Below, in pieces: positions 43,970 to 64,000 of a stretch of DNA of 64,000 nucleotides. Made by a program: the position numbers and the translations under genes. How positions within the stretch are numbered: the first letter of the stretch is position 1; every line of letters begins with the position of its first letter. This DNA is from Calditrichaceae bacterium (GTDB lineage: Bacteria > Calditrichota > Calditrichia > Calditrichales > JBFXGD01), in NCBI GenBank assembly GCA_050173015.1, contig JBFXLE010000020.1, positions 16,721 to 80,720 of the forward strand, given 5' to 3'. Under the pieces are notes generated by a model that was not told where the DNA came from, did not search any database, and saw only the letters and a program-made list of their open reading frames with translations.

Positions 43970-45341
43970 TGACGTCGGAGGCGTCACAGCTTAGTAGAAT
44001 GGAGATCACATGGTTATAGTCCGACCCCTGCGGGGTCGCGGGAGGATGTGGTGTCTGCTAATATTCTATTAACGTGTAATCCCTACGGGATTGGAATTAC
44101 CGGTTGCATTGGAAGCCATCAATTAATGATAAATATTGGTCAGGTGATAAAAAACCCGACGCCGGAGGCGTCACAGCTTAGTAGAATGGAGATCACATGG
44201 TTATAGTCCGACCCCTGCGGGGTCGCAGGAGGATGTGGTGTATGCTAATATTCTATTAACGTGTAATCCCTACGGGATTGGGATTGACGGTTGCAGGAAA
44301 AGTCCTGAATTAATGATGACAGTTGGCCATGTGAGATAGAAACCCTGACGCCGGAGGTGTCATATATTTGTAGAATAAGGGTTAAGCGGTAATTGTGCTG
44401 AAATAAATTCAGAATTGACAAAGGCGATTCTTCGGGGCGAATTTTCTGTCCGAGTGTAATAAATTGAAAAACGGATAAATTTAACACGAGTTAAAATTCG
44501 CCAGGGCTTTTTGCTACTTTTTGGCCATTCAAAAAGTAGGAAGAGAGAAGTAGGAACTTTAAGAGTTAAGTGTAGGTGCGACCGCCTGGTCACGGATATC
44601 CATTCCTGAAGTAGAGACGCATGTTGCCGATCATTCTACAAAAATATCATCCCTACGGGATTGGGATTGACGTTTTAATCTAAATAAAGGATGGATGATA
44701 ATGATCGGATTGATATGACATGAAGGCCTGACGCCGGAGGAGTCACAGCTTAGTAGAATGGAGATCACGTGGTTATAGTCCGACCCCTGCGGGGTCGCGG
44801 GAGGATGTGGTGTCTGCTAATATTCTATTAACGTGTAATCCCTTCGGGATTGGGATTGACGGTTGCAGGAAAAGTCCTGAATTAATGATGACAGTTGGCC
44901 ATGTGAGATAGAAACCCTGACGCCGGAGGTGTCATATATTTGTAGAATAAGGATTAAGCGGTAATTGTACGACCCCTATGGGGCCGTGGAATCGCGTGTT
45001 GCCGATCATTCTACAAAAATATCATCCCTACGGGATTGGGATTGACGGTTGCAGGAAAAGTCTTGAATTAATGATGACAGTTGGCCATGTGAGATAGAAA
45101 CCCTGACGCCGGAGGCGTCACAGCTTAGTAGAATGGAGATCACATGGTTATAGTCCGACCCCTGCGGGGTCGCAGGAGGATGTGGTGTCTGCTAATATTC
45201 TATTAACGTGTAATCCCTACGGGATTGGAATTACCGGTTGCATTGGAAGCCATCAATTAATGATAAATATTGGTCATTTGATAAAAAACCCGACGCCGGA
45301 GGTGTCATATATTTGTAGAATAAGGGTTAAGCGGTAATTGT
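43970..45341. repeat. array of seven ~125-bp three-hairpin REP/REPIN-like units (types A and B) joined by recurrent ~62-bp linkers
   Basis: Units start near 43970(A), 44157(A), 44346(B, interrupted), 44729(A), 44918(B), 45104(A), 45291(B, truncated); hairpins TGACGCCGGAGGCGTCA, CGACCCCTGCGGGGTCG, AATCCCTACGGGATT. Confidence 0.9.
44397..44617. repeat. insert interrupting a B unit; first ~145 bp repeated at 45342-45484
   Basis: Both copies begin after AATTGT and contain hairpin CTACTTTTTG-GCCATT-CAAAAAGTAG. Confidence 0.8.
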
Positions 45342-51727: not shown

Positions 51728-52035
51728 GGGAAACCTCCGTGTCAGAGATTCATAAAGTGGAAGAAAAAAGCGCCATAAGAAATATACGGATACTTTTTAT
51801 TAAAGCAAACCCTAAAATCGTTTGGTTCTTATTGATCTTAATCAGCATAAAAAAGTTAGCGCGACGTTCCTTGGATACATCCCACGATTTTTTTGCAAGA
51901 TGTCCGTCATTTAACCAACCCGTCATGATGCTTACTCTGTTAAATACACGTGATATGATGAACTTTCACGATTTCGGAATAATTAAATGTCCAAAAATCG
52001 TTGGCACATAATTAAAAATTGAATAGGGGAATCAG

Positions 52036-52761
52036 ATGAGCAGCAGTGAAAAGATTTCAAAGATGGCGGGAACAGGGTATCTCATTATTTTTATCACAGG
52101 AATATTCTCCAACTTTTTTGTTTTAGAATCGTTGATTTTGACGCGGGACCCGGCCGCGACGATGCAAAATATTATAAGCCATGATATGTTGTTTCGCGCG
52201 GGTATTTTTAGTTTTGTCCTCATGGTGGTTTTTGATGTCTTTCTGGCCTGGGCGCTGTATATTTTACTCCGGCCTGTAAACAGTAATCTGTCGTTACTGG
52301 CTGGTTGGCTCCGGTTAGCGAACAGCGTGATTTTTGGTGTCGCTTTGTATCATCTTTTTGGAATTTTACGTTTGTTAAGCGGGGCCGAATATCTGACAGT
52401 TTTTGATACCGCCCAGCTGGGCGCCATGGTCATATTATCGTATGTCACATTTAATGATATCTGGCTTATTGGACTGGTGTTTTTTGGGTTGCACCTGTTC
52501 GCGCTTGGTTATCTGATCATTAAATCCGGTTATATTCCCAAATTTATTGGTTTCTTTTTGGTCATCGCCGCCGTAGGTTATCTGACAGATAGTTTCGCGA
52601 ATTTTATGTTGCCAAATTATGGCGATTATAAAGATATATTATTAATGATTGTTATAGTTCCGGGAGTTATCGGGGAATTATCCCTGACGTTCTGGCTTTT
52701 GCTTAAGGGAGTGAAAGATCAGTCGTTAGATATGGTTTTTGAAGAATCAAAAATTGCGTGA
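52036..52761 (+). CDS. DUF4386 membrane protein
   Basis: LLRPVN..LSLLA; GLVFFG; SGYIPKFIG; GEL..WLL.KG. Confidence 0.8.
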   Translation: MSSSEKISKMAGTGYLIIFITGIFSNFFVLESLILTRDPAATMQNIISHDMLFRAGIFSFVLMVVFDVFLAWALYILLRPVNSNLSLLAGWLRLANSVIFGVALYHLFGILRLLSGAEYLTVFDTAQLGAMVILSYVTFNDIWLIGLVFFGLHLFALGYLIIKSGYIPKFIGFFLVIAAVGYLTDSFANFMLPNYGDYKDILLMIVIVPGVIGELSLTFWLLLKGVKDQSLDMVFEESKIA

Positions 52762-52782
52762 TATCATAAAATATACGGGGGA

Positions 52783-53763
52783 ATGATGAAAAAAATAGTC
52801 TATACGGAATACGGCCCGCCGGAAGTTCTCAAATTAAGAGAGGTCGAAAAACCGGTTCCTAAGGCGAATGAAGTGCTCGTAAAAATATACGCCACAACCG
52901 TAACGGCGACGGAATGTACTTTCAGACAGGGGAAACCGCTATTCGCCAGATTATTCACCGGGCCATTCAGACCGAGAATCACGACATTGGGAGAGGAGCT
53001 GGCCGGGGAAATTGAAGCGGTAGGTAAGGATGTCAAATTGTTTAAGGAAGGCGACAAGGTTTTTGGAACCGCCGGGCCGGAATTCGGAGCGAATGCCGAA
53101 TATATCTGCATGCCCGAAGACGGTGTACTGACGACTAAACCGTCCAACATGAGTTATGAGGAAGCGGCGTCCGCTATTGATGGTTTTCTGACCGCGCTGC
53201 CATTTCTGCGGGATAAGGGAAACATTCAGAAGGGGCAAAACGTACTTGTGAACGGCGCTTCCGGGAGTGTGGGCTCGTCCGCGGTACAGATCGCCGCGTA
53301 TTACGGCGCGGATGTCACCGGGGTGTGCAGCGGGGCGAATGCAGAACTGGTGAAATCCCTGGGCGCCGGAGAGGCCATCGACTATACAAAGCAGGATTTT
53401 ACCGGGAATGGCCGGACGTACGATATCATCTTTGATACGGTAGGAAAAATATCGTTTACACATTCTAAAAAATCACTTACAGAAAACGGCATCTTTCTTG
53501 AAGCCGGTGTTGGACTGAGGATTATGCCGCCGGTTTTATGGACATCCGTGACCGGCGGTAAAAAGGCAAAGATCGCCGCTACCGGTTTGAGACCGCCAAA
53601 GGAAAGAACCAAAGATCTCATACTCCTGAAAGAACTCATGGAGGCGGGAAAGATAAAACCGGTCATTGACAAACGCTATGATTTCGCGGATATCGTCGAG
53701 GCGCACAGATACGTGGATAAAGGGCATAAAAAGGGCAATGTGGTCATCACCGTGGCGGGATAG
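52783..53763 (+). CDS. NAD(P)-dependent alcohol dehydrogenase (MDR/quinone oxidoreductase-like)
   Basis: YGPPEVL; NGASGSVG; KPVIDK.Y; GHKKGNVV. Confidence 0.9.
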   Translation: MMKKIVYTEYGPPEVLKLREVEKPVPKANEVLVKIYATTVTATECTFRQGKPLFARLFTGPFRPRITTLGEELAGEIEAVGKDVKLFKEGDKVFGTAGPEFGANAEYICMPEDGVLTTKPSNMSYEEAASAIDGFLTALPFLRDKGNIQKGQNVLVNGASGSVGSSAVQIAAYYGADVTGVCSGANAELVKSLGAGEAIDYTKQDFTGNGRTYDIIFDTVGKISFTHSKKSLTENGIFLEAGVGLRIMPPVLWTSVTGGKKAKIAATGLRPPKERTKDLILLKELMEAGKIKPVIDKRYDFADIVEAHRYVDKGHKKGNVVITVAG

Positions 53764-53882
53764 AAGTAAGACCTGGCCGCAATATTGATTTAATTGACGG
53801 AAAATATCGCGTAATCTCGTCTTATTTTATGTATATCACGCTTAATTTTTTTAGCCGCGGGAGTCTGCTAATGACTGAAAAA

Positions 53883-54386
53883 CTATGTTCGCTTTTTCTC
53901 TTTTAAGTTAGATTGCCATTGGCCCAGAGCGAATAAAAAGGGTATAGAGATCAGAATTCCAATAACCACCAGTGGCCCAATCCAAATAAATTCAGGAAAT
54001 TTAACATAGTTCTCTAAAATTGCTTTTCGTAATAAATAAAAAGTGATGGGGAGATTCAGAACCATTGCGGTGACAACACCCGGAACATATTTTTTCATTG
54101 CTACTGTGGCGACAAAATGCGGGAATGGTACATTTAATAGCATTGCAAGAGCATAGCCCGATATCAGGTAAGCGCCAAAGCTTTCTTTACCTCCGGAAAT
54201 AGCCAGATAAGAAGCTATATAAGCAACTATGGTCAGTACAAAAACGGCGAATCGAAACTCACGTGGCTCCACCGGACGATGCCAGCGACCCGCGATTTTT
54301 GACCATGCGGGTAACCAGATGGCTTCTTCAATATTATGAAGAGTGATAGCTATGGCAAATAACCAAACGAGAAGATTGAAATCCAT
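53883..54386 (-). CDS. HXXEE-domain membrane protein
   Basis: LHNIEE; YVPGVVTA; no attC recognised downstream. Confidence 0.8.
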   Translation of the reverse strand: MDFNLLVWLFAIAITLHNIEEAIWLPAWSKIAGRWHRPVEPREFRFAVFVLTIVAYIASYLAISGGKESFGAYLISGYALAMLLNVPFPHFVATVAMKKYVPGVVTAMVLNLPITFYLLRKAILENYVKFPEFIWIGPLVVIGILISIPFLFALGQWQSNLKEKKRT

Positions 54387-54432
54387 TTTTAATACCGTAT
54401 GTTTATATCATAGGGTCTGTTGTCCAGGGCGG

Positions 54433-54504
54433 TCGTATCGATGGAACTCGTTGATTTTCGCGGAATGCAGCGGAGTGAAAATCCAGTGCAGTGCTTGGTT
54501 GGGC
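54433..54504 (-). other. attC site, degenerate R' (G|AT)
   Basis: Minus strand GCCCAAC-caagc-ACTGCACT-ggattttc...gaaaatca-ACGAGTT-ccatc-GATACGA. Confidence 0.65.
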
Positions 54505-54510
54505 AATCGA

Positions 54511-55614
54511 TCACAAGACATTTACCTTGATTGAGTTTCGAATTTGCGGCCCGGCAACTTCAAGTGCCATTTCCATTATATCCTGTATATTTCGACGACT
54601 ATAGTTTGTGCCAAGCCACCATCCTGACACAACTTCAACAGAATGTTGTTCTGCTAAATCTGGACGATCAGGGTAAAGATCACTTTTATCTTTGGCAATA
54701 TATCTCCTTTTCTTGCCGTGTTTGCGTGATGCAAACCTATCAAGGAAACCACTATCTTCTTGAGACAGCAACTGAAAAAGCATTGTCATAACTTCTCTCG
54801 CGGAACGAGCAGGAAAATTTTTTCCTTTAAATATAAGATGAAATTTATCAAAAGTTCGGGTGTGAGTAGTACCGGTCGCTGGCGTGATTGGTTTCGTTGG
54901 TTTTATCGGACGTTTTATATCATCTTTATATTTGTCAAGATGTTGGTTATTCTGAATTTGCATTTCTAGAAATTGACTGCATACATCCAAATCCGGTTTA
55001 TACCCGCAAAGGTCTTCAACCTTATCGGCAAGCAAATCCAACAACAAGGAATCCTGATCCTTAAGCAATCCTTCCCATGCTTTTGGGAGGTTAGTTTCTA
55101 TAATTCGGACGCGTGCAACATTCTGATAATCTGAACGAGCAGCCTTTAGTGCAGCTCCTGAGCAAACATTGCTGTAACTTAAGTATCTGTCAAGTCTGGT
55201 TTTTGCTTCGGAAACATCTCGTTCAAGAAGGTCGAGTTTATAAACTCTGCGTTCATCATAGCGGCCTTGCTCACCAGGGAGGTAAAAACTCCACTCCTGA
55301 CCGTCCGTCAGGATTGCCATCGGTACCCCAAGATGGAAAGCATATTCGAATAATTGTCGATCTGCTCCTTCGGAAAACCCCACCTTTTTGACCTCTATAA
55401 ATACAGATGGTCGGTTTTCCGGATAGCATAGTGCGTAATCAACACGCCGGCCTTCAACAGAAAATTCTGGGATTACGATGGATGTATCAAAAACTGGCCA
55501 TCCGAGCTCATTCAAAGCAGGTAGAAGAATTCCCTGTGATACAGCCGCTTCAGAAGTAAATCTGCCTTCTCGGAGGCCCATCCGAACATTTTCAATGAAA
55601 TTAGCGATTGCCAT
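54511..55614 (-). CDS. cassette gene: HsdR-N-like PD-(D/E)XK nuclease fused to a SeqA-C-like domain
   Basis: PEF...RVDYAL...FIEVKK...ILTDGQEW; C-terminal HGKKRRYIAKD...GWWLGTNYS. Confidence 0.7.
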   Translation of the reverse strand: MAIANFIENVRMGLREGRFTSEAAVSQGILLPALNELGWPVFDTSIVIPEFSVEGRRVDYALCYPENRPSVFIEVKKVGFSEGADRQLFEYAFHLGVPMAILTDGQEWSFYLPGEQGRYDERRVYKLDLLERDVSEAKTRLDRYLSYSNVCSGAALKAARSDYQNVARVRIIETNLPKAWEGLLKDQDSLLLDLLADKVEDLCGYKPDLDVCSQFLEMQIQNNQHLDKYKDDIKRPIKPTKPITPATGTTHTRTFDKFHLIFKGKNFPARSAREVMTMLFQLLSQEDSGFLDRFASRKHGKKRRYIAKDKSDLYPDRPDLAEQHSVEVVSGWWLGTNYSRRNIQDIMEMALEVAGPQIRNSIKVNVL

Positions 55615-55633
55615 TTTTGCTTCTTCCTTTTAT

Positions 55634-55703
55634 GTCTAACAGGGGAGTACACCTGCCCCCGAACATCTACGCGTTTTGGGTCAGGTGCAATGAATTGTTA
55701 TGC
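55634..55703 (-). other. attC site
   Basis: Minus strand GCATAAC (contains the gene's TAA)-aattc-attgcacctgaccc...gggggcaggtgtac-tcccct-GTTAGAC. Confidence 0.88.
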
Positions 55704-56186
55704 CAACTTTTTTTCAATTAAATCCCATCGATCTTTATAGATAGAAATATCCCAGTCTAAAGCCGATCTATATGGTGGCAAGATCACAGTACGAACCTTG
55801 TTGTCTTTATGAGGTTGTCCTTTCTTCCCGGGTGTTGACAGCCATAGATAGTGTCCTTTTTTTATATTTTTAGCCATATCTTTTGATTGGATTATGAAAT
55901 ACTCAAATTCTTTTTTTTGTTCTGGTAATGGGATTCCTCCTAAAATCCAGAAAAAGTTCTCACCAAAATTTACTTCTGATTTCAGACCAACACTGCATGT
56001 TCGATTTCCAGGGACAAATGTTTTCACCTGAATATGAACAAATTTAGTACCTGATAAATTACTGCATAATATATCTGTATTAGGAGTATTGCCAAGAGTT
56101 ACGACTGCTGAATACCCACGCCTACAGAGCTCTCCCGCAATAAAAAATTGACTTGCATTTCCGCGTGTACTTTTTTCTTTTGCCAT
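55698..56186 (-). CDS. cassette gene: small PD-(D/E)XK-like nuclease
   Basis: G...F.AGEL.RRGY...NTDIL...IQVKT; stop codon lies in attC R''. Confidence 0.65.
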   Translation of the reverse strand: MAKEKSTRGNASQFFIAGELCRRGYSAVVTLGNTPNTDILCSNLSGTKFVHIQVKTFVPGNRTCSVGLKSEVNFGENFFWILGGIPLPEQKKEFEYFIIQSKDMAKNIKKGHYLWLSTPGKKGQPHKDNKVRTVILPPYRSALDWDISIYKDRWDLIEKKLA

Positions 56187-56228
56187 TTCCAAAGATTAGT
56201 TTATCAAATCTTGAGCAAGTTAAACTTA

Positions 56229-56324
56229 ATATAACGCCGGCGATAACCCGCAAAACGCCTTAAAATTTTATCCCGACGAAATCAGCGTCCCGGTGTGCAG
56301 GTCGGGTTGATTGCATTGTTATGT
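56229..56324 (-). other. attC site
   Basis: Minus strand ACATAAC-aatgc-aatcaacccg...cgggttatcgccggc-GTTATAT. Confidence 0.85.
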
Positions 56325-56336
56325 GCTGCTGTTTAA

Positions 56337-57569
56337 TTATTGTAAAACGCTTTTAAGTTCATTTTCCCATTTCAAAAAACCGTCAACAAGTTCAGAGTAA
56401 TCATGGTAAACCCGACTAAAAGAATCATCTGAAGAATTTAAATAATCTTTCTTACCTTTGGCTTTTATCACATTTATTATATCTTCAATTCTCTTTACAG
56501 CTTGTTTAAGGACTTGTTTGTTTTTTTCAATATGCCAGATATAAGTTGCTTCTTCAGTGTCAAGAGTTTCCCAAATGATGTGATATTTTTTATTACCTTC
56601 AAACAAGAAGATAAAAGAAAAAGGACTATGTACAAAGCGTAGTTTCATTATTTTATGGGCATGCAATTTAGATAAATATTTTAAGTGATTAAAATGTTTA
56701 GTACCCGAAATTTGAATTAAATCTTCAAGAAACTCTATATCTTTTTTATAAAATATATTTGGGTTAACATTTCTCTCTGGTTGTGAGTCGAGTTGTTCAT
56801 CAAAAGTATAAATAGTTTTAGCGTCTTTACTGAAGCTTTTCTTTTTAATCATTGATTTTACAAATGAAATTTTTACATCATCTATAAAATCTGTATTAAT
56901 TTTTTCTATCTCTGGAGATTGTGCAGTACTAGAAATAACTCTACCATCTTCAATTACTATATTACATGAAACCCTAATTTTTTTTGATTTAAGGACATTG
57001 GCAAAATAGTTTTTAACCGCTTCAAATTCTTTTTTCAAGTCATTGTTGGGAATACAAAGTTCAATAGGGTCAATGTGGTTTTTAAATTTCTTAATAATCT
57101 TTACGCAACCATCTTCGAAGAGAACATTTTTCAGAGAAATCAAAAAATTTTCTTTTATTACTTTTTTGATCGGGAAGTATTTGGGTGGAATTTCATTAAA
57201 ATAGTTAGTTGTAGATCTGCAAACAGATTCATATTTTTCAGGTATAAAAGTTCCTGGCTTTTGTCCTTTCAAGGTTCTTAATAGACCGTCAGTATCGATG
57301 CTTTTAAATGCGATAATTTCAATAGCATTAAGCTCATCAAATAAACTTTTTTGGACATATGAAAATTGAGTTTCACCAACATGATATGATATAACATCAA
57401 CGTAAATTTTTTTTGGGCTATGATTTAGAATTTTAACTTTCCAAAATGCTGGGGACGAAAATGATTTTGCGATTGGTGGTAAACCAAGCTGGTCTAAAAG
57501 CAATGATTTACTGCTTGTTAAATAGGCTTTATTGTCTTTTAAGATTAGTTTTATTTCTTGGCCAATCAT
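56337..57569 (-). CDS. cassette gene: AT-rich hypothetical protein
   Basis: 410-aa ORF bounded by attC sites; C-terminal HIIWETLDTEEATYIW...RVYHDY. Confidence 0.7.
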   Translation of the reverse strand: MIGQEIKLILKDNKAYLTSSKSLLLDQLGLPPIAKSFSSPAFWKVKILNHSPKKIYVDVISYHVGETQFSYVQKSLFDELNAIEIIAFKSIDTDGLLRTLKGQKPGTFIPEKYESVCRSTTNYFNEIPPKYFPIKKVIKENFLISLKNVLFEDGCVKIIKKFKNHIDPIELCIPNNDLKKEFEAVKNYFANVLKSKKIRVSCNIVIEDGRVISSTAQSPEIEKINTDFIDDVKISFVKSMIKKKSFSKDAKTIYTFDEQLDSQPERNVNPNIFYKKDIEFLEDLIQISGTKHFNHLKYLSKLHAHKIMKLRFVHSPFSFIFLFEGNKKYHIIWETLDTEEATYIWHIEKNKQVLKQAVKRIEDIINVIKAKGKKDYLNSSDDSFSRVYHDYSELVDGFLKWENELKSVLQ

Positions 57570-57606
57570 TTAGCAAACCTTTTAATAAATACTAAAACTA
57601 CAAAGC

Positions 57607-57739
57607 ACCTAACGATTAGGCATAACCGGATGAAAACAATGCGGCCAGTAACCTGAAAATTACCACCAAATTTGACCGGAACAATAAATTTAAAAAAACC
57701 GAAACGCGTTTTCATTCCGAGTTGATGCCCGTGTTATGT
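57607..57739 (-). other. attC site (133 bp)
   Basis: Minus strand ACATAAC-acggg-catcaactcggaatgaaaac...gttttcatccggttatgcc-taatc-GTTAGGT. Confidence 0.85.
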
Positions 57740-57761
57740 GCTGATTAATTGCAATTTGGTT

Positions 57762-58472
57762 CTATGAATTTAATCGTTCAATTTCAGCGCGTATTTCTTC
57801 AAGTATATCTTTGTTTCTTATTTGCTTTTTATCATTTATTTTTGAAGAAAATATAATAAACACCCGACCGCCATAAGCTTCTTCGAACTCATCAAAATTT
57901 TGACGCATTCTATCAGATATTGAGTAATTTCCAAAATTAGCGGTGGCAGTTATTGGTTTGATTTGAATTCCAAATGCTTTGTCATTTACATTACCCAAAT
58001 AGTCAATATCACCTGCGTGATCTAATTCTGGGTCAGATTCAGTAAATTTAACATTTGGAAACTCTTTTGCTAATATATCATTTACAACTGATTTTTCAGT
58101 TACAAAGCCGTCATATGTTCTAAAAATTGTTACTTCTCTAATGTAGTCTAAACAATCTTGTTTTGTTATCTGCTTAAATGCCTCAGACCATTCCGGGATG
58201 ACAACTTCTGTAATTTTTTCGTACAGTCTCTCACCTAATTCTGTTAATATTTCCTCGGTAACTTTTATTTCTTTTTTTGTTTTTGTGTAAGCATTTGCCC
58301 AATAATATTCTTGCCATTCATCGAATGATTTTGGTTGGCATTCTCGAATTAGAGCCATAACTTCGCCAACTTTTTTGGGTCTTGTTAGCTGATATGTATT
58401 ACTCGTGTAATTTAGTACCTTTTCTTTTTTCCCGAATGATTTTGCAACTTTTTTGATCTCATCATCTGCCAT
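57762..58472 (-). CDS. type II restriction endonuclease, MjaI-like
   Basis: TRPKKVG; RTYDG...E; ELD...IDY...GIQIKP PD-(D/E)XK; start overlaps MTase stop. Confidence 0.75.
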   Translation of the reverse strand: MADDEIKKVAKSFGKKEKVLNYTSNTYQLTRPKKVGEVMALIRECQPKSFDEWQEYYWANAYTKTKKEIKVTEEILTELGERLYEKITEVVIPEWSEAFKQITKQDCLDYIREVTIFRTYDGFVTEKSVVNDILAKEFPNVKFTESDPELDHAGDIDYLGNVNDKAFGIQIKPITATANFGNYSISDRMRQNFDEFEEAYGGRVFIIFSSKINDKKQIRNKDILEEIRAEIERLNS

Positions 58473-59760
58473 TGTGATTTTCCAATCCGATAAATTTTGA
58501 TTTATATTTATAATTCGTTTCTCTATCTGCAAAAGCATATCCGTTTTTAATTAAGTGGGCATTCATAAATGTTTTATTTTTAAGATATAGATAGCAAAGC
58601 AGATTGTTCTCATTATCGTATTTTACTACATCAAATTTTAAAAATACTTTTTGACTGTCAACTTTTTTCTTAATGAATTCTCGAGCTCTTCCATTTAAGG
58701 TTTCATTCTCTTTAATGCCTAATAAGCGAATCTTAAGACCCGTATTAAGTATTAGTTTCTCTGTGGAAACGATATCTTTAACCTGGTAATATTTTTCATT
58801 ATTTTTTGAGTTATTGTCAATTTTTGAGCCAAACTGAAGCTTTTTAGGATCTATCTTTTTATCTAATAGATGAGAATCTTTAAAGATGTAAGGCAGATTT
58901 TTAATATCTTCTTTAAAGTCATTGTTCATCTTCGTTTGTTGAGTAAATTCATATTTTGTATTTAGCAAGTCTTGTTGGTCAACATTTAGCTTTCTTTTAA
59001 TATAAGGAATGAACTCGGTATTTAATTCGTAGCCTACTGAATTCCTGGATAATTTTTTAGCAGCTAAGCTGGTAGTTCCACTTCCAACAAATGGGTCAAG
59101 TATAGTATCACCAACAAAAGAAAACATTTTTATTAAACGGTGTGGTAACTCTTCCGGAAACATCGCTATATGGCTATCTTGTTTTGCACCGCCAAAATTC
59201 CAATGCCCAGAAAAATATTCTTTCCACTCTTCTTTTGTCATTTTCGATTGTTCTTTTAACTCTTTATTAGGCTTTTTGGGGTTGCCGAGTTTCTTAAATA
59301 GTAGAATAAATTCATAGTCAATAGATAAAATTCCATTTCTCGGATATGGGAAACTACCCATCACGCTGGCGCCACCAGTAGTATTAGTAGTCGTTTTCTT
59401 TTGCCAGATTATTGCCCCCATATAATCAAAACCAACTGTTTCGCAAAATTTAATTATTTCAGTTCGAATTGGAATGACTTTATACCTGCCATAATATACT
59501 GCTCTTGCAAATTGGTCACCTATATTCACACAAAGCCTGCAACCATTGTTTAAAACTCTAAAACTTTCTTTCCAGACTAAATTGAGATTATTTATGTAGT
59601 TTTCGTAGCTATCATTATATCCGATTTGGTCAGCGCTTCCATAATCTTTTAATTGCCAGTATGGTGGTGATGTAATCACTAAATCAATAGAATTGTCTGG
59701 CAATTCGGCCATTCTTCGGCTATCGCCATTTATGATTAAATGTTTTGTTGAGTTTGACAT
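58462..59760 (-). CDS. beta-class N4C/N6A DNA methyltransferase with C-terminal thermonuclease(SNase)-like domain
   Basis: ITSPPY before LDPFVGSGTT; H.AMFPEEL; C-terminal IRLLGI...YD...LLCYLY...N..LIKNGYA. Confidence 0.88.
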   Translation of the reverse strand: MSNSTKHLIINGDSRRMAELPDNSIDLVITSPPYWQLKDYGSADQIGYNDSYENYINNLNLVWKESFRVLNNGCRLCVNIGDQFARAVYYGRYKVIPIRTEIIKFCETVGFDYMGAIIWQKKTTTNTTGGASVMGSFPYPRNGILSIDYEFILLFKKLGNPKKPNKELKEQSKMTKEEWKEYFSGHWNFGGAKQDSHIAMFPEELPHRLIKMFSFVGDTILDPFVGSGTTSLAAKKLSRNSVGYELNTEFIPYIKRKLNVDQQDLLNTKYEFTQQTKMNNDFKEDIKNLPYIFKDSHLLDKKIDPKKLQFGSKIDNNSKNNEKYYQVKDIVSTEKLILNTGLKIRLLGIKENETLNGRAREFIKKKVDSQKVFLKFDVVKYDNENNLLCYLYLKNKTFMNAHLIKNGYAFADRETNYKYKSKFIGLENHNGR

Positions 59761-59855
59761 TAAAAATCCTATGACTAAAGTTTCTATATTATTTTTATCT
59801 TTGCAAAGATAAGAAATAGAGGATTTGTTTACAATTTAGAAAATTTTAACAAAGC

Positions 59856-60266
59856 ACATAACATATTGATCAGACGTCCATCTTCATTATCATTTTATTC
59901 TAATATTGGAAAACATTTTCTAAATGTAGAAAACTTATTCTAATGTTAGAAAAAAAATATTTCCAATATCAGAGAAATTAACCGTCGGAAACAGTTCGCC
60001 CCTCAGATCAATGGAATAGTGGCTTTTTAAGACACACCCCGAACCATTTGTTGTTTATATTCTTTAAACCGGCGTGAGATGATATCCAAATCATAATCGT
60101 CCTTGTCTGAACCATCATCAATTGTCTGAGTTTTCAACGATTGAAGCAAAAAAAGGGTTAAATAAAAACGTTATCATAATAATCAATTGAAATGGAAATT
60201 TCAAGAGGCTAATAATTTTCGGATATTTTAGCAAACGGTATAACCCATCCCCAATCCTGAAGGGAT
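59856..60266 (-). other. putative attI + Pc module, copy 1
   Basis: Near-identical to 63110-63527; identity starts at the GTTA core; four 14-bp palindromes; promoter at 60176-60204. Confidence 0.7.
60176..60204 (-). promoter_or_regulatory. putative Pc-like cassette promoter
   Basis: TTGAAA-N17-TATTAT facing the cassettes. Confidence 0.55.
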
Positions 60267-60346
60267 GAGATCTTTCTAAAAAACCGGCCACTCGTCGGTA
60301 TCATTGTGATGATGTTCCCGGGTAAAGGGATTGCGATGGCTGTTTT

Positions 60347-61699
60347 TCATTGTATCCGGTATTGAGTGAGTTCTTCGCTGAAATTCCAGTAGGACTTCTC
60401 TTTTCTCGCTCCACTTTTGTTCACCTGATAGGTAACAATGAGGCTCTTCACGATCCCCACTCCCGGAGCGAACCAGAATGTGGATTCGCGATCCTCGTTC
60501 TCGACTTCCCCGCGCCATTGGGCTGTCATCGAAACGGGCAGGCAGTTAAACTTTCCGGCTGGAACTGAAACCTCCATCTCCGTTCCGACCGAAAATTTTT
60601 CATGAATTCTTGCCTGGTGGGGGCCTACAGGAGTCTGTACATCCGTGATATAGTCATTGGTCCATTGTGTTCCGGATTTCAAATCGTAAGGAAAGTAAAG
60701 TGGCAAGGGACTATTCTCATAGAAATACTCCGACGATGCGGTTTTACCGTCCTTTTTTAGAAAAGCGAAGTAACTTCCCGTTAACATGATCCCTTTGTCT
60801 CCTTTGGTGTAAAATTCACCTGAACGCTCTTTATTCTTTGCGGCTCCTTCAATCTCGTTTAATTCGCGATAATAGGAAAAAGCAGAACCTTGTTTCATGT
60901 TTTTTCCCGGGCCGGCTCTCCGTGTGACCTGGCGGACCATCTCGCGGGAAGTAAAGATTCCCGGAATATTCCCGCGCAAATCGTATACCCAATAGTTACC
61001 TTCGTTAAGAGACCAGAAGACTTCCTTGAACTTGTCTTTAGCTGCTTTGAAGTTGGGATCAAGATCGGTGGCTTTTTTGAGTTCCGCCAATGATCCCTGG
61101 CTGTCCAAACGGACCTGAAGCAGCGCCCCCTGTCCGAAATGTCTGTAAGCCTCGATTGATTCCGTGGGACGTTCCGCGATCTTGTCCAAATCCTGTTCTT
61201 TAAGTTCAATATTGAGTTTGGCCGCGAGTCCCCTGACTATTTCATCCTGAAGATCAAAGATACTATCCATAGGGCCTGTCGCTTTTGAAGATTGTATGAC
61301 AGCGCCCGTTTTTACATCAACAAATCGGGAAGTGAGGCGGATGGTCTCGGCGCTCTTTTGATACGCTCCCAGGACGATTATATCCGCTCCGATCAACTCA
61401 CCCACAGATAAAGCCGTTTTCTCATCTATAAGACCTGTAAGATGCAGACTTTGCTCTTCGAGTATTCTCATGAGTTGAAGGCGTTCTATAACAACTATGC
61501 CCGGTATCGAAAGGAGATCAGTTGTGATGGTTTCGGGAATGCCCAGGGAGAGCCAATCCAGATCCTGATTCTTTCCTACGTTCTCAAAAGGTATAACAGC
61601 CACATTTTGGCTTTTTGCATGGGCACCCGGTACGAATTCCAGGATGACAAGCAGAATGAATATTTTATACATTTTAATTTTTACATCGGACAACTTCAA
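60347..61699 (-). CDS. exported protein with CsgG/FlgO/TolB-N-like domain, TPR and C-terminal beta domain
   Basis: Signal peptide; VAVIPFEN..WLS.GI; IER..L..IL.EQ; VPAGKF...WFAPGVGIVK; TTG start after CAGGAGG. Confidence 0.75.
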   Translation of the reverse strand: MKLSDVKIKMYKIFILLVILEFVPGAHAKSQNVAVIPFENVGKNQDLDWLSLGIPETITTDLLSIPGIVVIERLQLMRILEEQSLHLTGLIDEKTALSVGELIGADIIVLGAYQKSAETIRLTSRFVDVKTGAVIQSSKATGPMDSIFDLQDEIVRGLAAKLNIELKEQDLDKIAERPTESIEAYRHFGQGALLQVRLDSQGSLAELKKATDLDPNFKAAKDKFKEVFWSLNEGNYWVYDLRGNIPGIFTSREMVRQVTRRAGPGKNMKQGSAFSYYRELNEIEGAAKNKERSGEFYTKGDKGIMLTGSYFAFLKKDGKTASSEYFYENSPLPLYFPYDLKSGTQWTNDYITDVQTPVGPHQARIHEKFSVGTEMEVSVPAGKFNCLPVSMTAQWRGEVENEDRESTFWFAPGVGIVKSLIVTYQVNKSGARKEKSYWNFSEELTQYRIQ

Positions 61700-61737
61700 A
61701 GAACCTCCTGAATCATTTTAACTATTAAATTCATACT

Positions 61738-61809
61738 GTCGAAGGTCACAAATCAGCCACGAATTCGGAGCGCAGCGGAAAATTTGTCGGCTGCGTTTGC
61801 TTGTTATAT
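61738..61809 (-). other. attC site, degenerate R' (CTT)
   Basis: Minus strand ATATAAC-aagca-aacgcagccg...gtggctgatt-tgtgac-CTTCGAC. Confidence 0.65.
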
Positions 61810-61827
61810 GGTGCTCTGATTAGGTGA

Positions 61828-62196
61828 TTAAACGAGCAAACGGAACCCGCCATACACCATCCGTTCAGCATCAAAGATCGGCTTCGATGTATGAGTCAGT
61901 GGATTGATCAAATCCGTCATCCTTGGGTCGGCCGCGACTCTTTTATTTGCAAGATCACGTGCCTCACGAGATTCGAATGCGACCCATCCAAAGATTACGG
62001 CTTCATCCTCTTTTGTGTTCGCGACATCAGTGAAAGATCGAGTACCCTCTAAATTTGAATCGTCAATAACATATTCTGAATAATCGAGCGCGCCATGTTC
62101 CTTCCAAATCTTCGCAACCTTTTCTACAACTTCTCTATATGTCTTTAACTGATCGCGCGGCACCGGGAGTATGAACCCGTCGATGTAGTTCGTCAT
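61828..62196 (-). CDS. cassette gene: DUF1428 (YbaA-like) protein
   Basis: YIDGF..PVP; W.EHGAL.Y.E; FD..RM.YGGF. Confidence 0.85.
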   Translation of the reverse strand: MTNYIDGFILPVPRDQLKTYREVVEKVAKIWKEHGALDYSEYVIDDSNLEGTRSFTDVANTKEDEAVIFGWVAFESREARDLANKRVAADPRMTDLINPLTHTSKPIFDAERMVYGGFRLLV

Positions 62197-62234
62197 GTTA
62201 TCCTCCAATCTTGCTACTAAACTTTGTGTTCAAG

Positions 62235-62339
62235 CCGTAACGGTCAATACTTAGCCGCCCGCCAGAATTGGATATTTACCAATGCATTTTACGAAAATCA
62301 TCGTACGCATGTCGTGTCGGCTACAGTATTTTGTTAGCA
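62235..62339 (-). other. attC site
   Basis: Minus strand TGCTAAC-aaaat-actgtagccg...cggctaagtattgacc-GTTACGG. Confidence 0.82.
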
Positions 62340-62354
62340 ACTTTTTGTTACATA

Positions 62355-63068
62355 TTAATGAACCATTCCTAAGCTCAGGGCTAAAAAGCCAAAAGCTCCA
62401 AATATAAAGTGAACAATAATAGCAATTGTAGTATTTTTTCTAATTTGAACAATTGCAGGTAGAATAAAAAAAATAGGAGTAGACGCAAAAATCAAATCTA
62501 AACCCATTGGCAAATGCCAAAGTGCCCACAAAATGCCATGAACAAACCAAGTCCAATGATTATTGAGAAGTTCCTGTCTTGGCTGAATATAGCCTCTCCA
62601 TAAAAATTCTTCACCAAATATGTTGAAAAAAAAGAAAAAAGGCCAAACATATAAAATCCAAAAAAATTCATCATTTAATGGCATGTTTTGAAAGAAAAAA
62701 GGAGTAGCATCAATACCAAATTTCGGCATAAAAATTTTAGCAATAATAAAAGATGTAACTACTAGAAGGAGAAAGGTTGATATAGTCCATAATAAATCTG
62801 ATGGAGAAAGCTTTTTAATCCTCATTCTAGTAAGTAGATCTCTCAATTTATATGAGCCAACATCTCGACCACATAAATATAAAGCTCCAAAAAACATTGG
62901 CATCAAGACAATAATACCAACACTAAGAAAGTAAGTTATTTCAATTGGTAAAATTTGCTGCCTGTTGATAATTGGTATTACGATTTGGGAAGCGAAATAA
63001 TTTAAAATAGTCGGTATGCCAAATAACAATATCAAATCTGGCCACTTAGTCTTTTTTAATTCTTTCAC
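62355..63068 (-). CDS. cassette gene: CPBP/CAAX intramembrane protease (Abi family)
   Basis: GEEFLWRG; WALWH; AIIVH. Confidence 0.88.
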   Translation of the reverse strand: MKELKKTKWPDLILLFGIPTILNYFASQIVIPIINRQQILPIEITYFLSVGIIVLMPMFFGALYLCGRDVGSYKLRDLLTRMRIKKLSPSDLLWTISTFLLLVVTSFIIAKIFMPKFGIDATPFFFQNMPLNDEFFWILYVWPFFFFFNIFGEEFLWRGYIQPRQELLNNHWTWFVHGILWALWHLPMGLDLIFASTPIFFILPAIVQIRKNTTIAIIVHFIFGAFGFLALSLGMVH

Positions 63069-63109
63069 AATTACATATCTTTCAACTTTATTCTAAAAGT
63101 TACTCTGGT

Positions 63110-63527
63110 TGCTAACATATTGATCAGATGTCCATCTTAATTATCATTTTATTCTGATATTGGAAAACATTTTCTAAATGTAGAAAACTTATTCAAATGT
63201 TAGAAAAGGAAATATTTCCAATATTAGAGAAATTAACCATAGGAAACTATTTGCGCCTCCGATCAATGGAAGGGGGGCATTTTAAGGCACACCCCAAACC
63301 ATACTTTGTTTTTATTCTTTAAACCGGCGTGAGATGATATCCAAATCATAAGCGTCCTTGTCTGAACCATCATCAATTGTCTGCGTTTTCAACGTTTGAA
63401 GCAAAAATAAAAAGGATTAAATAAAAACGCTATCATAGTAAACAAAAGGAATTGAAATTTCAAGAGGCTAATAATTTTCGGATATTTTAGCAAACGATTT
63501 AATCCGTTTCCCCAATCCCGAAGGGAT
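63110..63527 (-). other. putative attI + Pc module, copy 2
   Basis: Near-identical to 59856-60266; core GTTAGCA; promoter TTGAAA-N17-TACTAT at 63435-63463. Confidence 0.7.
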
Positions 63528-63633
63528 TACACGTTAATAAAAAATACAGACCCACATCATCCCGCGACCCCGCAGGGGTCGTAAAATTATGTCCAAATTC
63601 CCGTTCTACAAAGATGTGACGCCGATGGCGTCG
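63511..63633 (-). repeat. inverted copy of the three-hairpin REP unit
   Basis: AATCCCGAAGGGATT-ACACGTTAATA...CGACCCCGCAGGGGTCG...TGACGCCGATGGCGTC, the reverse complement of the 44-45 kb units. Confidence 0.85.
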
Positions 63634-63808
63634 GTCGGCTGATTAAATTGAATTCCCCTCCTGCTAGATTTAGAGAATTCCCGGCGCTGACTGACGCGGA
63701 TTCATCTTTGATTCAATTCATTTATTTTTGTTGTATTTGGTTGAACGGACGGGTGTGTTTTACAGATGATATTTGCATGCCTAGGGCGCCCATATGAGGA
63801 CGCCCCGA

Positions 63809-63866
63809 CTCTTAACTCTTACACTCTTAACTCTTAACGCTCTTAAATTCTTACTTCCTGCTTACG
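63809..63866 (-). repeat. heptamer tract (CTCTTAA)n
   Basis: ctcttaactcttacactcttaactcttaacgctcttaaattcttacttcc. Confidence 0.65.
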
Positions 63867-64000
63867 ACACAAAAACAACCCCCTTAGTCCCCCTTTGGCC
63901 AGGCTGTTGCAAAATCAACTCATGCCAAAGCACTGTTGGGGATTAAAAAGAAATAAAATTTTTCAAGATAACGTATGATTGTTCTTTGACATGAAGTTTT

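Follow-up and report, generated by a model that had tools for sequence, protein, structure and literature searches.

The window analysed here is a stretch of 64,000 nucleotides from a Calditrichaceae bacterium (GenBank assembly GCA_050173015.1, contig JBFXLE010000020.1, positions 16,721 to 80,720 of the forward strand). It carries a non-coding repeat in two copies, each heading a short series of gene cassettes with attC recombination sites, which probably represent integron platforms (an attI attachment site plus a promoter) that have become separated from their integrase. Because all genes here are on the minus strand, the repeat, called the module in the following, was read on that strand. 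There a hairpin of the repetitive extragenic palindromic (REP) type (AATCCCTTCGGGATT) lies upstream of a putative sigma-70-like promoter, which is followed 5' to 3' by a non-coding leader of ~200 nt, palindromes of the type TTCTAAnnTTAGAA and the end TCTRATCAATATG|TT.

63113 to 63544, minus strand: module copy 2; the G of the G|TT crossover is 63116; ends ...TCTGATCAATATGTTA
59859 to 60283, minus strand: module copy 1; the G of G|TT is 59862; ends ...TCTGATCAATATGTTA

The copies are collinear direct repeats with 87.96% identity over 432 columns (blastn). A repeat search resolved them into four blocks of 96, 89, 89 and 81% identity (59859-59953/63113-63207, 59950-60152/63205-63407, 60150-60246/63409-63505 and 60248-60283/63509-63544, respectively), and from the -35 box to GTTA they are 90% identical. 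A preliminary description of this DNA had proposed two similar but diverged copies of ~410 bp with a REP hairpin next to them. Both copies and hairpin proved real, the repeat being slightly longer than first reported because the hairpin belongs to it.

On the minus strand, the similarity of both copies breaks off immediately past ...ATATGTTA, and beyond ...TCTGATCAATATGTTA| copy 1 goes on with TGTGC and copy 2 with GCAAC. The copy 1 junction GTTATGTGC is the exact reverse complement of GCACATAAC at window position 57741, and the copy 2 junction GTTAGCAAC is that of GTTGCTAAC at 62341; each of these positions is the R'' of the first attC of the respective array, whose hairpin site has the nine-base string GCACATAAC or GTTGCTAAC at its 5' end. 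It had been claimed that similarity stops at the GTTA core and gives way to the complement of each first cassette's own R'', and this was confirmed exactly for both copies. The genes and attC sites behind the modules are as follows, in minus-strand order from module copy 2, with module copy 1 standing between the 450-aa gene and the restriction-modification cassette.

62355 to 63068, minus strand: cassette gene, 237 aa, Rce1-like/CPBP membrane protease family (Pfam PF02517, E 1.6e-11)
62235 to 62341, minus strand: first attC of the copy 2 array; R'' GTTGCTAAC, R' GTTACGG (covariance model R1, 69.6 bits; model seed)
61828 to 62208, minus strand: second cassette gene, 126 aa, DUF1428 (list of open reading frames (ORFs), Pfam)
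60347 to 61699, minus strand: 450-aa CsgG/DUF3108-like gene between the arrays, without attC; contiguous in an independent contig (X2, see below)
57762 to 59760, minus strand: two-gene restriction-modification unit that forms the first cassette of the copy 1 array, between the attI junction and the attC at 57607-57741
57607 to 57741, minus strand: attC of the restriction-modification cassette; R'' GCACATAAC, R' GTTAGGT (R1 106.8 bits; model seed)
56229 to 56326, minus strand: attC of a 410-aa cassette (gene 56337-57569; R1 26.1 bits, E 6.5e-4; non-seed, reached by chain walk)
55634 to 55705, minus strand: attC of a 164-aa cassette (gene 55698-56192; R1 53.4 bits; model seed)
54511 to 55614 and 53883 to 54386: cassette-like genes further on, HSDR_N and HXXEE, respectively (Pfam)

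The preliminary description had seen one array with two entry points. Two module heads are indeed present, but they serve two short arrays split by the attC-less 450-aa gene rather than one continuous array. A hairpin with a T-run lies between this gene and module copy 1, and a degenerate attC-like stretch (61730-61800), missed by the covariance model, follows the DUF1428 gene. The restriction-modification unit consists of a 432-aa N6/N4 methylase and a 258-aa MjaI-like endonuclease (Pfam); it is a complete type II pair, whose methylase has a C-terminal SNase-like domain. Synteny with a congener, genome G001, picks up again at about window position 53762 (G001:C163).

For the attC sites, 14 sequences were first aligned, of which five rows were misaligned and nine were retained as seeds. 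Covariance model R1 was built from these nine, all taken behind module copies genome-wide. In the nine-seed alignment RNAalifold recovered the R''/R' pairing (TAAC/GTTA) and the L''/L' helix, and the attC sites are regarded as real because compensatory changes occur at 8 of the 13 predicted pairs. With filters off, the model gave four attC sites between 52000 and 64000, all on the minus strand. As our own model and profile searches found attC without an integron integrase gene (intI), the locus is an attC cluster that has no integron integrase (CALIN) and not a complete integron in the sense of IntegronFinder (intI plus at least one attC). The model search of the own genome scored 150 of 2126 first-look candidates and is no census. 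Three ad hoc attC scanners were discarded; one found a single site and two gave more matches on reversed sequence.

A duplication of this kind might be an assembly artefact, i.e. a chimeric join of two strains' loci, since the assembly is a metagenome-assembled genome of 54 contigs and contigs from other sequencing runs break inside modules, although the latter is because the modules are repeats. The copies differ at ~12% of positions, and three more loci have tandem pairs. In run X2, which belongs to another study, a contig spans 60125-63169 unbroken, starting within copy 1, crossing the 450-aa gene and two cassettes and ending within copy 2, while X3 contigs cover 60067-61079 and 61073-62826. 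We regard the artefact, which the preliminary description had itself named as fatal to its reading, as barely conceivable. An X3 joint from 60152 to 63511, with 22 letters on one side and lying between two repeats, was not used. The X2 and X3 contigs also show twelve substitutions within 57 nt of copy 1 (60190-60247, from the REP hairpin to the -35 box), and the neighbouring gene differs by ~1% in the same contigs; the cluster could have arisen by gene conversion between module copies.

No significant match to the attC model was found in either module with filters off (best 8.2 bits, E 4.5, on the wrong strand), in line with the earlier statement that the module is no attC hairpin and as expected for attI, a double-stranded site rather than a folded hairpin. 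An attI is also expected to adjoin an integron integrase gene, and, as described before, neither copy does so. In the assembly as a whole (genome G000), the profile TIGR02249 gave 9 matches with none over the cut-off (best 87.6 bits against 265), and tblastn with the IntI of three relatives found only XerC/D-like genes at 26-30% identity; congener G001 likewise has no match over the TIGR02249 cut-off. Among the 41 genomes of the same order that were searched, 21 have one.

The origin of the module end became apparent from these relatives. In G003, a complete genome of the same order, the last 110 nt of the module align to the attI region behind intI and a 125-aa reading frame, orf125. There the order is co-oriented, with intI followed by orf125, palindromes of the type TTCTAAnnnTAGAA, the end ...ACTAATATGTTAAACG and tandem cassettes with five attC matches. 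Contig C3 of G000 carries a relic of the same arrangement, in which tRNA-Leu(CAA) is followed by an intI fragment VKDIDIEYKQIAVRG that continues in frame into orf125 (its protein 57% identical to that of G003), palindromes, the end ...TCTAATCAATATGTTA| and cassettes. An alignment of the module with G003 and the C3 relic (A3) has 62 invariant columns, and divergence sets in right after GTTA. The 3' part of the module is thus, by homology, the attI region of the lineage's co-oriented integron, and C3, the only recognisable platform in G000, has lost its integrase. To the earlier question of whether any copy adjoins intI, the answer is that none does here, while the homologous site follows intI and orf125 in G003 and, on C3, what is left of a deleted intI.

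Directly downstream of intI, orf125 is found in G003, G031, G018 and G033, and related palindromes follow in all four. An end of the ATGTTA type is present in G003 and G018; the G031 contig stops just before the expected GTT, and G033 has no clear attI end. The orf125 loci are:

L061, 6842 to 7219
G000 C3, 2804 to 3130
G031:C583, 130 to 459
G018:C130, 295 to 651
G033:C159, 1634 to 1969

No Pfam family exceeded its cut-off for orf125 (weak matches to DUF5710 and DUF6641); its product is a candidate accessory DNA-binding factor. One in-frame TGA each was seen in the intI of G003 (L061 5742-6824) and in both intI copies of G007 (two loci), and these could be pseudogenes or recoded genes.

The homology also bears on the possibility that the module is no true attI and the cassettes went into a repeated promoter region by secondary, attG-type insertion at a GTT. 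IntI is reported to insert cassettes at genomic GTT sites (10.1101/2022.09.11.507474), so such an origin has a precedent. Against this, all 10 aligned module copies have their insertion point at one and the same nucleotide, this point is homologous, base for base, with the one that follows intI and orf125 in G003 and with that of the C3 relic, and the upstream palindromes are conserved with both platforms. We consider an attG origin highly improbable.

A 435-nt module query gave 24 matches in G000, which blastn resolved into ~20 loci, so the platform has multiplied, as had been suggested, and to far more than the two copies of the window. Nine full or near-full modules have an intact ATGTT (C20 twice, C1:72669, C1:19785, C4:36249, C45:545, C7:75002, C10:18733 and C10:92469). 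The further loci comprise the one relic platform on C3, at least six with a mutated or degenerate end and at least four promoter-leader pieces. An alignment of ten copies reaches from the -35 box to ATATGTT(A). Their mean pairwise identity is 0.64-0.75 inside the module compared to 0.28 over the preceding 50 nt and 0.29 over the following 40 nt, and among them similarity ends exactly at GTT(A). Including the window, tandem module pairs occur at four loci (the others being C4 205k/207k, C7 75.0k/76.1k and C5 152k/153k).

In a phylogenetic tree the two window copies are sisters (100/100 support), and so are the positional orthologues C4_207 and G001:C177 (82/73 support). The orthologues are 82% identical compared to 68-79% for the other paralogues and 90% for the window pair, from which we conclude that most of the module family is, judged by sequence divergence, older than the split of the two species and the window duplication younger. 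In wider scans, a search of species-representative genomes for the attI pattern returned 12 matches in unrelated taxa (~17 expected by chance), 17 of 20 matches of a metagenome scan with the leader pattern were chance, and of two viral scans one had no match and the other two chance matches.

A REP hairpin stands directly upstream of eight of the module copies examined (C20a, C20b, C1_19, C4_35, C45 and C7_75 among the ten aligned copies, and C5_27 and C10_92). The module might conceivably have spread by rearrangement at REP clusters or on integrase-made circles that contained it. The window itself has two accumulations of such hairpins:

63545 to 63900: REP-type hairpin cluster upstream of copy 2, to near the contig end, e.g. 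CGACCCCGCAGGGGTCG and GACGCCGATGGCGTC
43971 to 45338: tandem array of about seven 189-nt units, each with three REP-type hairpins, TGACGCCGGAGGCGTCA, CGACCCCTGCGGGGTCG and AATCCCTACGGGATT

The hairpin types of the 189-nt array also flank many module copies, including the cluster upstream of copy 2, and G000 has a 142-aa ORF resembling IS200-like/REP-associated transposases at C4:46004-46432. Behind the module at C10:92469, ARAGORN predicts a tRNA-like gene of 97 nt whose anticodon has four bases (acca; C10:92485-92581, L016 1573-1669); the gene starts 16 nt past the attI junction, at the position of a first cassette.

IS1111-attC elements and group IIC-attC introns insert at attC sites, and the module might similarly be mobile but non-autonomous and go into attC at its GTT, the sharp junction of the module reflecting the choice of target. 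Many dispersed copies, a 3' end sharp at GTT and module pieces at G001 loci where G000 has none would all fit. The model with filters off found no attC remainder 5' of either window copy (52000-64000), though, and there is neither an Rfam ribozyme or intron match nor a conserved ORF, whereas such elements interrupt an attC and carry a transposase, an intron ribozyme or terminal repeats. The 5' boundary is fuzzy with nothing conserved before the -35 box (no specific search for terminal inverted repeats or target duplications was made), and the same 3' sequence is a resident site beside intI and orf125 in relatives. An attC-targeting element is therefore very unlikely in our view.

Upstream of the attI end, three kinds of site were recognised in the window copies:

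63435 to 63463, minus strand: promoter-like site of copy 2, TTGAAA-17-TACTAT (consensus scan 9/12; hexamers kept in 10 aligned copies)
60176 to 60204, minus strand: promoter-like site of copy 1, TTGAAA-17-TATTAT (consensus scan 10/12; hexamers kept in 10 copies)
60133 to 60145, minus strand: palindrome TTCAATCGTTGAA, just downstream of the copy 1 promoter; equivalent in copy 2 near 63387-63400
59885 to 59975, minus strand: three to four 14-bp TTCTAAnnTTAGAA-type palindromes upstream of the attI core (TRF period 20, inverted repeat I8); in copy 2 at ~63140-63230

The promoter-like hexamers match the consensus at homologous places in both copies and point into the cassettes, and a consensus scan found no terminator-like site between them and the attI end. 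The palindrome downstream of the promoter has the form TTCAA-N3-TTGAA. Among the 10 aligned copies, 7 retain both arms, which are imperfect in C1_19, C45 and C7_75. Its 3-nt centre is variable, and neither covariation nor a consensus RNA fold was seen among the 10 copies; by its form it may be operator-like. Palindromes of the TTCTAAnnTTAGAA type also lie between orf125 and attI in G003, G031, G033 and the C3 relic, and their half-site TTCTAAT repeats the TCTAAT of the attI core. Half of the aligned copies (5/10) are short forms without the 64-nt palindrome block, which have a single palindrome-like site that is imperfect in several.

A structured-RNA leader was considered and dropped, as RNAalifold on the 10 copies gave -2.75 kcal/mol without supported helices. 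No Rfam match reached the gathering score anywhere in the window, and a limit relaxed to E 10 brought up nothing but noise between 59700 and 60400. A coding reading of the small frame LKTQTIDDGSDKDDYDLDIISRRFKE... of copy 1 was likewise abandoned, the frame being lost in other copies. Because indels are not multiples of three and there is neither a consensus RNA fold nor an Rfam match, the conserved blocks are read as DNA sites.

If the modules serve as attI, cassettes should be joined to them at G|TT and begin with the complement of their own attC R''. At 8 of 12 module ends, both window copies among them, the exact reverse complement of GTT plus six letters was found within 7 kb downstream, compared to 0/12 in upstream controls (three of the upstream stretches being short) and 5/132 in cross-locus comparisons; matches with one mismatch are not discriminating, as they occurred in 43 of 132 control comparisons. 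Six of the eight matches lie at fold-checked attC sites from the chain walk, that of C45 in a seed match of R1 and that of C10 in a non-seed R1 match. According to the chain walk, the arrays behind the modules have from one to about five cassettes. These differ from copy to copy with an attC R'' that fits the junction, which agrees with the earlier proposal that different cassettes were captured.

Comparison of strains and species pointed to turnover of these cassettes. At the orthologous locus in G000 (C4:196000-215000) and G001 (C177), the flanking genes are 82-89% identical and the module is in place in both (80%), whereas it is followed by unrelated cassettes in the two genomes; G000 also has a second, tandem module. 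A metagenome contig from a closely related strain (L104, 98.8 kb) is 96-98% identical to G000 across the C4_35 locus. Identity runs up to ...AATATGTTA|, then 1643 nt follow that are unrelated to the 2957 nt of G000, and it returns exactly at G|TTAGTGTCC, past two different attCs. From the position of its ends, this swap is the signature expected of integrase-made cassette replacement. The same module, with a 96% blastn match, is followed by L104's two ORFs also in L121, a stretch of another contig. In the X2 contig, window positions 59858-59915 (0 differences) are joined to 55701-53500 (11 differences) by 1289 nt of other sequence, which replace 4156 nt of the window. Two near-identical strains, known from separate assemblies, thus carry different cassettes behind the same module. 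Natural replacement in close strains, bounded at C4_35 by the GTTA of attI and the G|TT of attC and starting at the attI junction in the X2 case, is indirect evidence for attI x attC recombination. A search for empty sites in G001 ended in contigs that stop at arrays or in synteny rearranged at REP clusters.

All this could in principle be the remains of a dead system, in which attI fragments were scattered by REP-cluster rearrangement, the integrase was lost lineage-wide and the strain differences stem from homologous recombination of old segments. Such inert fossils would agree with the deletion of intI in the sole remaining platform, the failure to find IntI in G000 or G001, the many copies that are truncated or mutated at GTT, and the rearranged synteny around REP clusters between the two genomes. 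They would not account well for promoter and attI blocks conserved across paralogues that, at 68-79% identity, predate the G001 split (orthologues 82%), nor for a cassette swap with both ends at crossover points between flanks of 96-98% identity. In addition, one leader-attI join is common to all copies, and this suggests spread of a derived unit rather than random fragmentation. Inert fossils are thus an unlikely explanation.

Therefore, from the homology of the module end to a resident attI, the conserved promoter-like and palindromic sites, the junctions and the strain comparison, we think it probable that the repeats are orphan integron platforms, each an attI with an outward promoter and without integrase, which have multiplied and at which cassettes still turn over, in essence the reading of the preliminary description. 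The module would then combine the attI core TCTRATCAATATG|TT, TTCTAAnnTTAGAA palindromes, a sigma-70-type promoter and the ~200-nt non-coding leader. Its attI part would descend from the co-oriented platform of the order (intI, orf125, palindromes, attI, cassettes), of which G000 retains one example with deleted intI beside tRNA-Leu, and the promoter-leader-attI unit would have spread to ~20 loci, 10 of them with an intact ATGTT end. An IntI of the orf125-linked type, encoded outside the assembly or on a visiting mobile element, presumably inserts attC cassettes at the module G|TT, and the module promoter may transcribe the first of them. The palindromes with the TCTAAT half-site might be accessory sites for IntI or the orf125 protein, and the TTCAA-N3-TTGAA palindrome could be an operator that places all modules under one regulator.

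Several observations weigh against orphan platforms. Four of the 12 junctions have no exact R'' match, and the right boundary of the X2 exchange is the start of a shared attC (55701) and not its R', so that only the left boundary, the attI junction, is clean. About half of the loci are decayed, with GTT mutated in C4_205, C4_207, C1_58, C4_32 and C7_76. The evidence for the promoter consists of consensus match and conservation, and nothing in the intI-linked platforms of G003 or C3 is recognisable as the source of the leader. Nor is the module an indivisible unit, since its parts also occur alone. G001:C90 has a piece with attI only, and the leader by itself precedes a permease in G001 (the G000 orthologue being without it) and, at C5:153470, the relic of a non-IntI recombinase. 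One attC cluster at least, C4:7248-10842, is without an upstream module. Finally, since no integron integrase was found in G000 (97.5% complete) or G001, the enzyme that the model requires is missing from the data.

Two of these loci showed further features. The C4:7248-10842 cluster has three model matches and small gene pairs resembling toxin-antitoxin systems. The recombinase relic on C5 (C5:153453-153900) belongs to a second type of platform relic in G000, seen also at C9:105600-106250, 110100-110750 and 118950-119600 and at C43:2350-2900. It consists of the decayed 3' end of a non-IntI tyrosine recombinase followed by a conserved ...ACCGCCAATTTGGGCGGATAAGAAC...ATATATACGnACGTT| junction, and the relic on C5 is preceded by the modules' own promoter-leader.

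An extended version of the orphan-platform reading, which we put forward tentatively and think rather doubtful as a whole, is that of a distributed integron. Here, a self-spreading attI-promoter module, possibly moving with REP clusters, would provide about ten live entry and expression points, joined into a regulon by one operator and served by a single non-resident integrase that comes with a visiting mobile element or is kept in part of the population. If so, small CALINs of other phyla could in many cases be satellite platforms and not debris.

An attI and promoter uncoupled from intI, multiplied, outlasting a species split and still sites of cassette turnover appear to be a new form of the integron. 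Multi-copy modules of attI plus promoter without integrase were not found described in the literature searched, supplements being outside the search (the data of Cury et al., 2016, on inverted integrases and known attI sites, Supplementary Figure S2 and Table S3, may be relevant). The usual view is that of one integrase, one attI and one promoter per array, with integrase-less attC clusters as remnants or stray insertions; the modules suggest that the landing pad is able to spread within a genome even where its integrase is absent. If the integrase acts in trans, a genome could run many small, separately expressed arrays without a resident recombinase, and both the interpretation of CALINs and the way of finding attI sites would change. 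The modules also provide a natural set of attI variants (short and long palindrome forms, GTT mutants) for testing attI requirements, and the conserved platform of intI, orf125, palindromes and attI points to an unstudied accessory protein.

In class 1 integrons, attI1 is a double-stranded site with accessory repeats (DR1, DR2) upstream of G|TT, and the promoter Pc reads into promoterless cassettes. The module is similar in having an attI with accessory repeated sites and an upstream, here predicted, promoter directed toward the cassettes. It differs in showing no sequence similarity, in lacking a divergent intI that carries Pc and in having 14-bp palindromes in place of the direct repeats commonly described for attI1. 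With CALINs and with single attC sites that have no integron integrase (SALINs), the loci here share attC without integron integrase; most of the arrays found here are short. CALINs are defined by attC alone and are viewed as integron remnants, rearranged array pieces (PMC4889954) or attG insertions (10.1101/2022.09.11.507474), whereas most arrays here are headed by their own conserved attI and predicted promoter, the insertion point and likely expression point. Cassettes that IntI inserts at a genomic GTT near a resident promoter are reported to be expressed, and small CALINs and SALINs may arise in this way (10.1101/2022.09.11.507474). With such attG sites the modules share cassettes outside a complete integron beside a resident, here predicted, promoter, but they are repeats of a conserved, true attI homologue instead of loose GTT-containing hotspots. 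A further comparison is with integrons that have co-oriented ('inverted') integrases, such as the Treponema group; a group of this kind has been described, while attI is stated to be unknown for most integrons (Cury et al., 2016, PMC4889954). The module attI is homologous to the co-oriented attI of relatives, with its crossover at G|TT, and R and L boxes are paired in the attC sites. Unlike these integrons, the modules have a separate predicted promoter and a leader instead of intI and orf125, and occupy ~20 loci rather than one.

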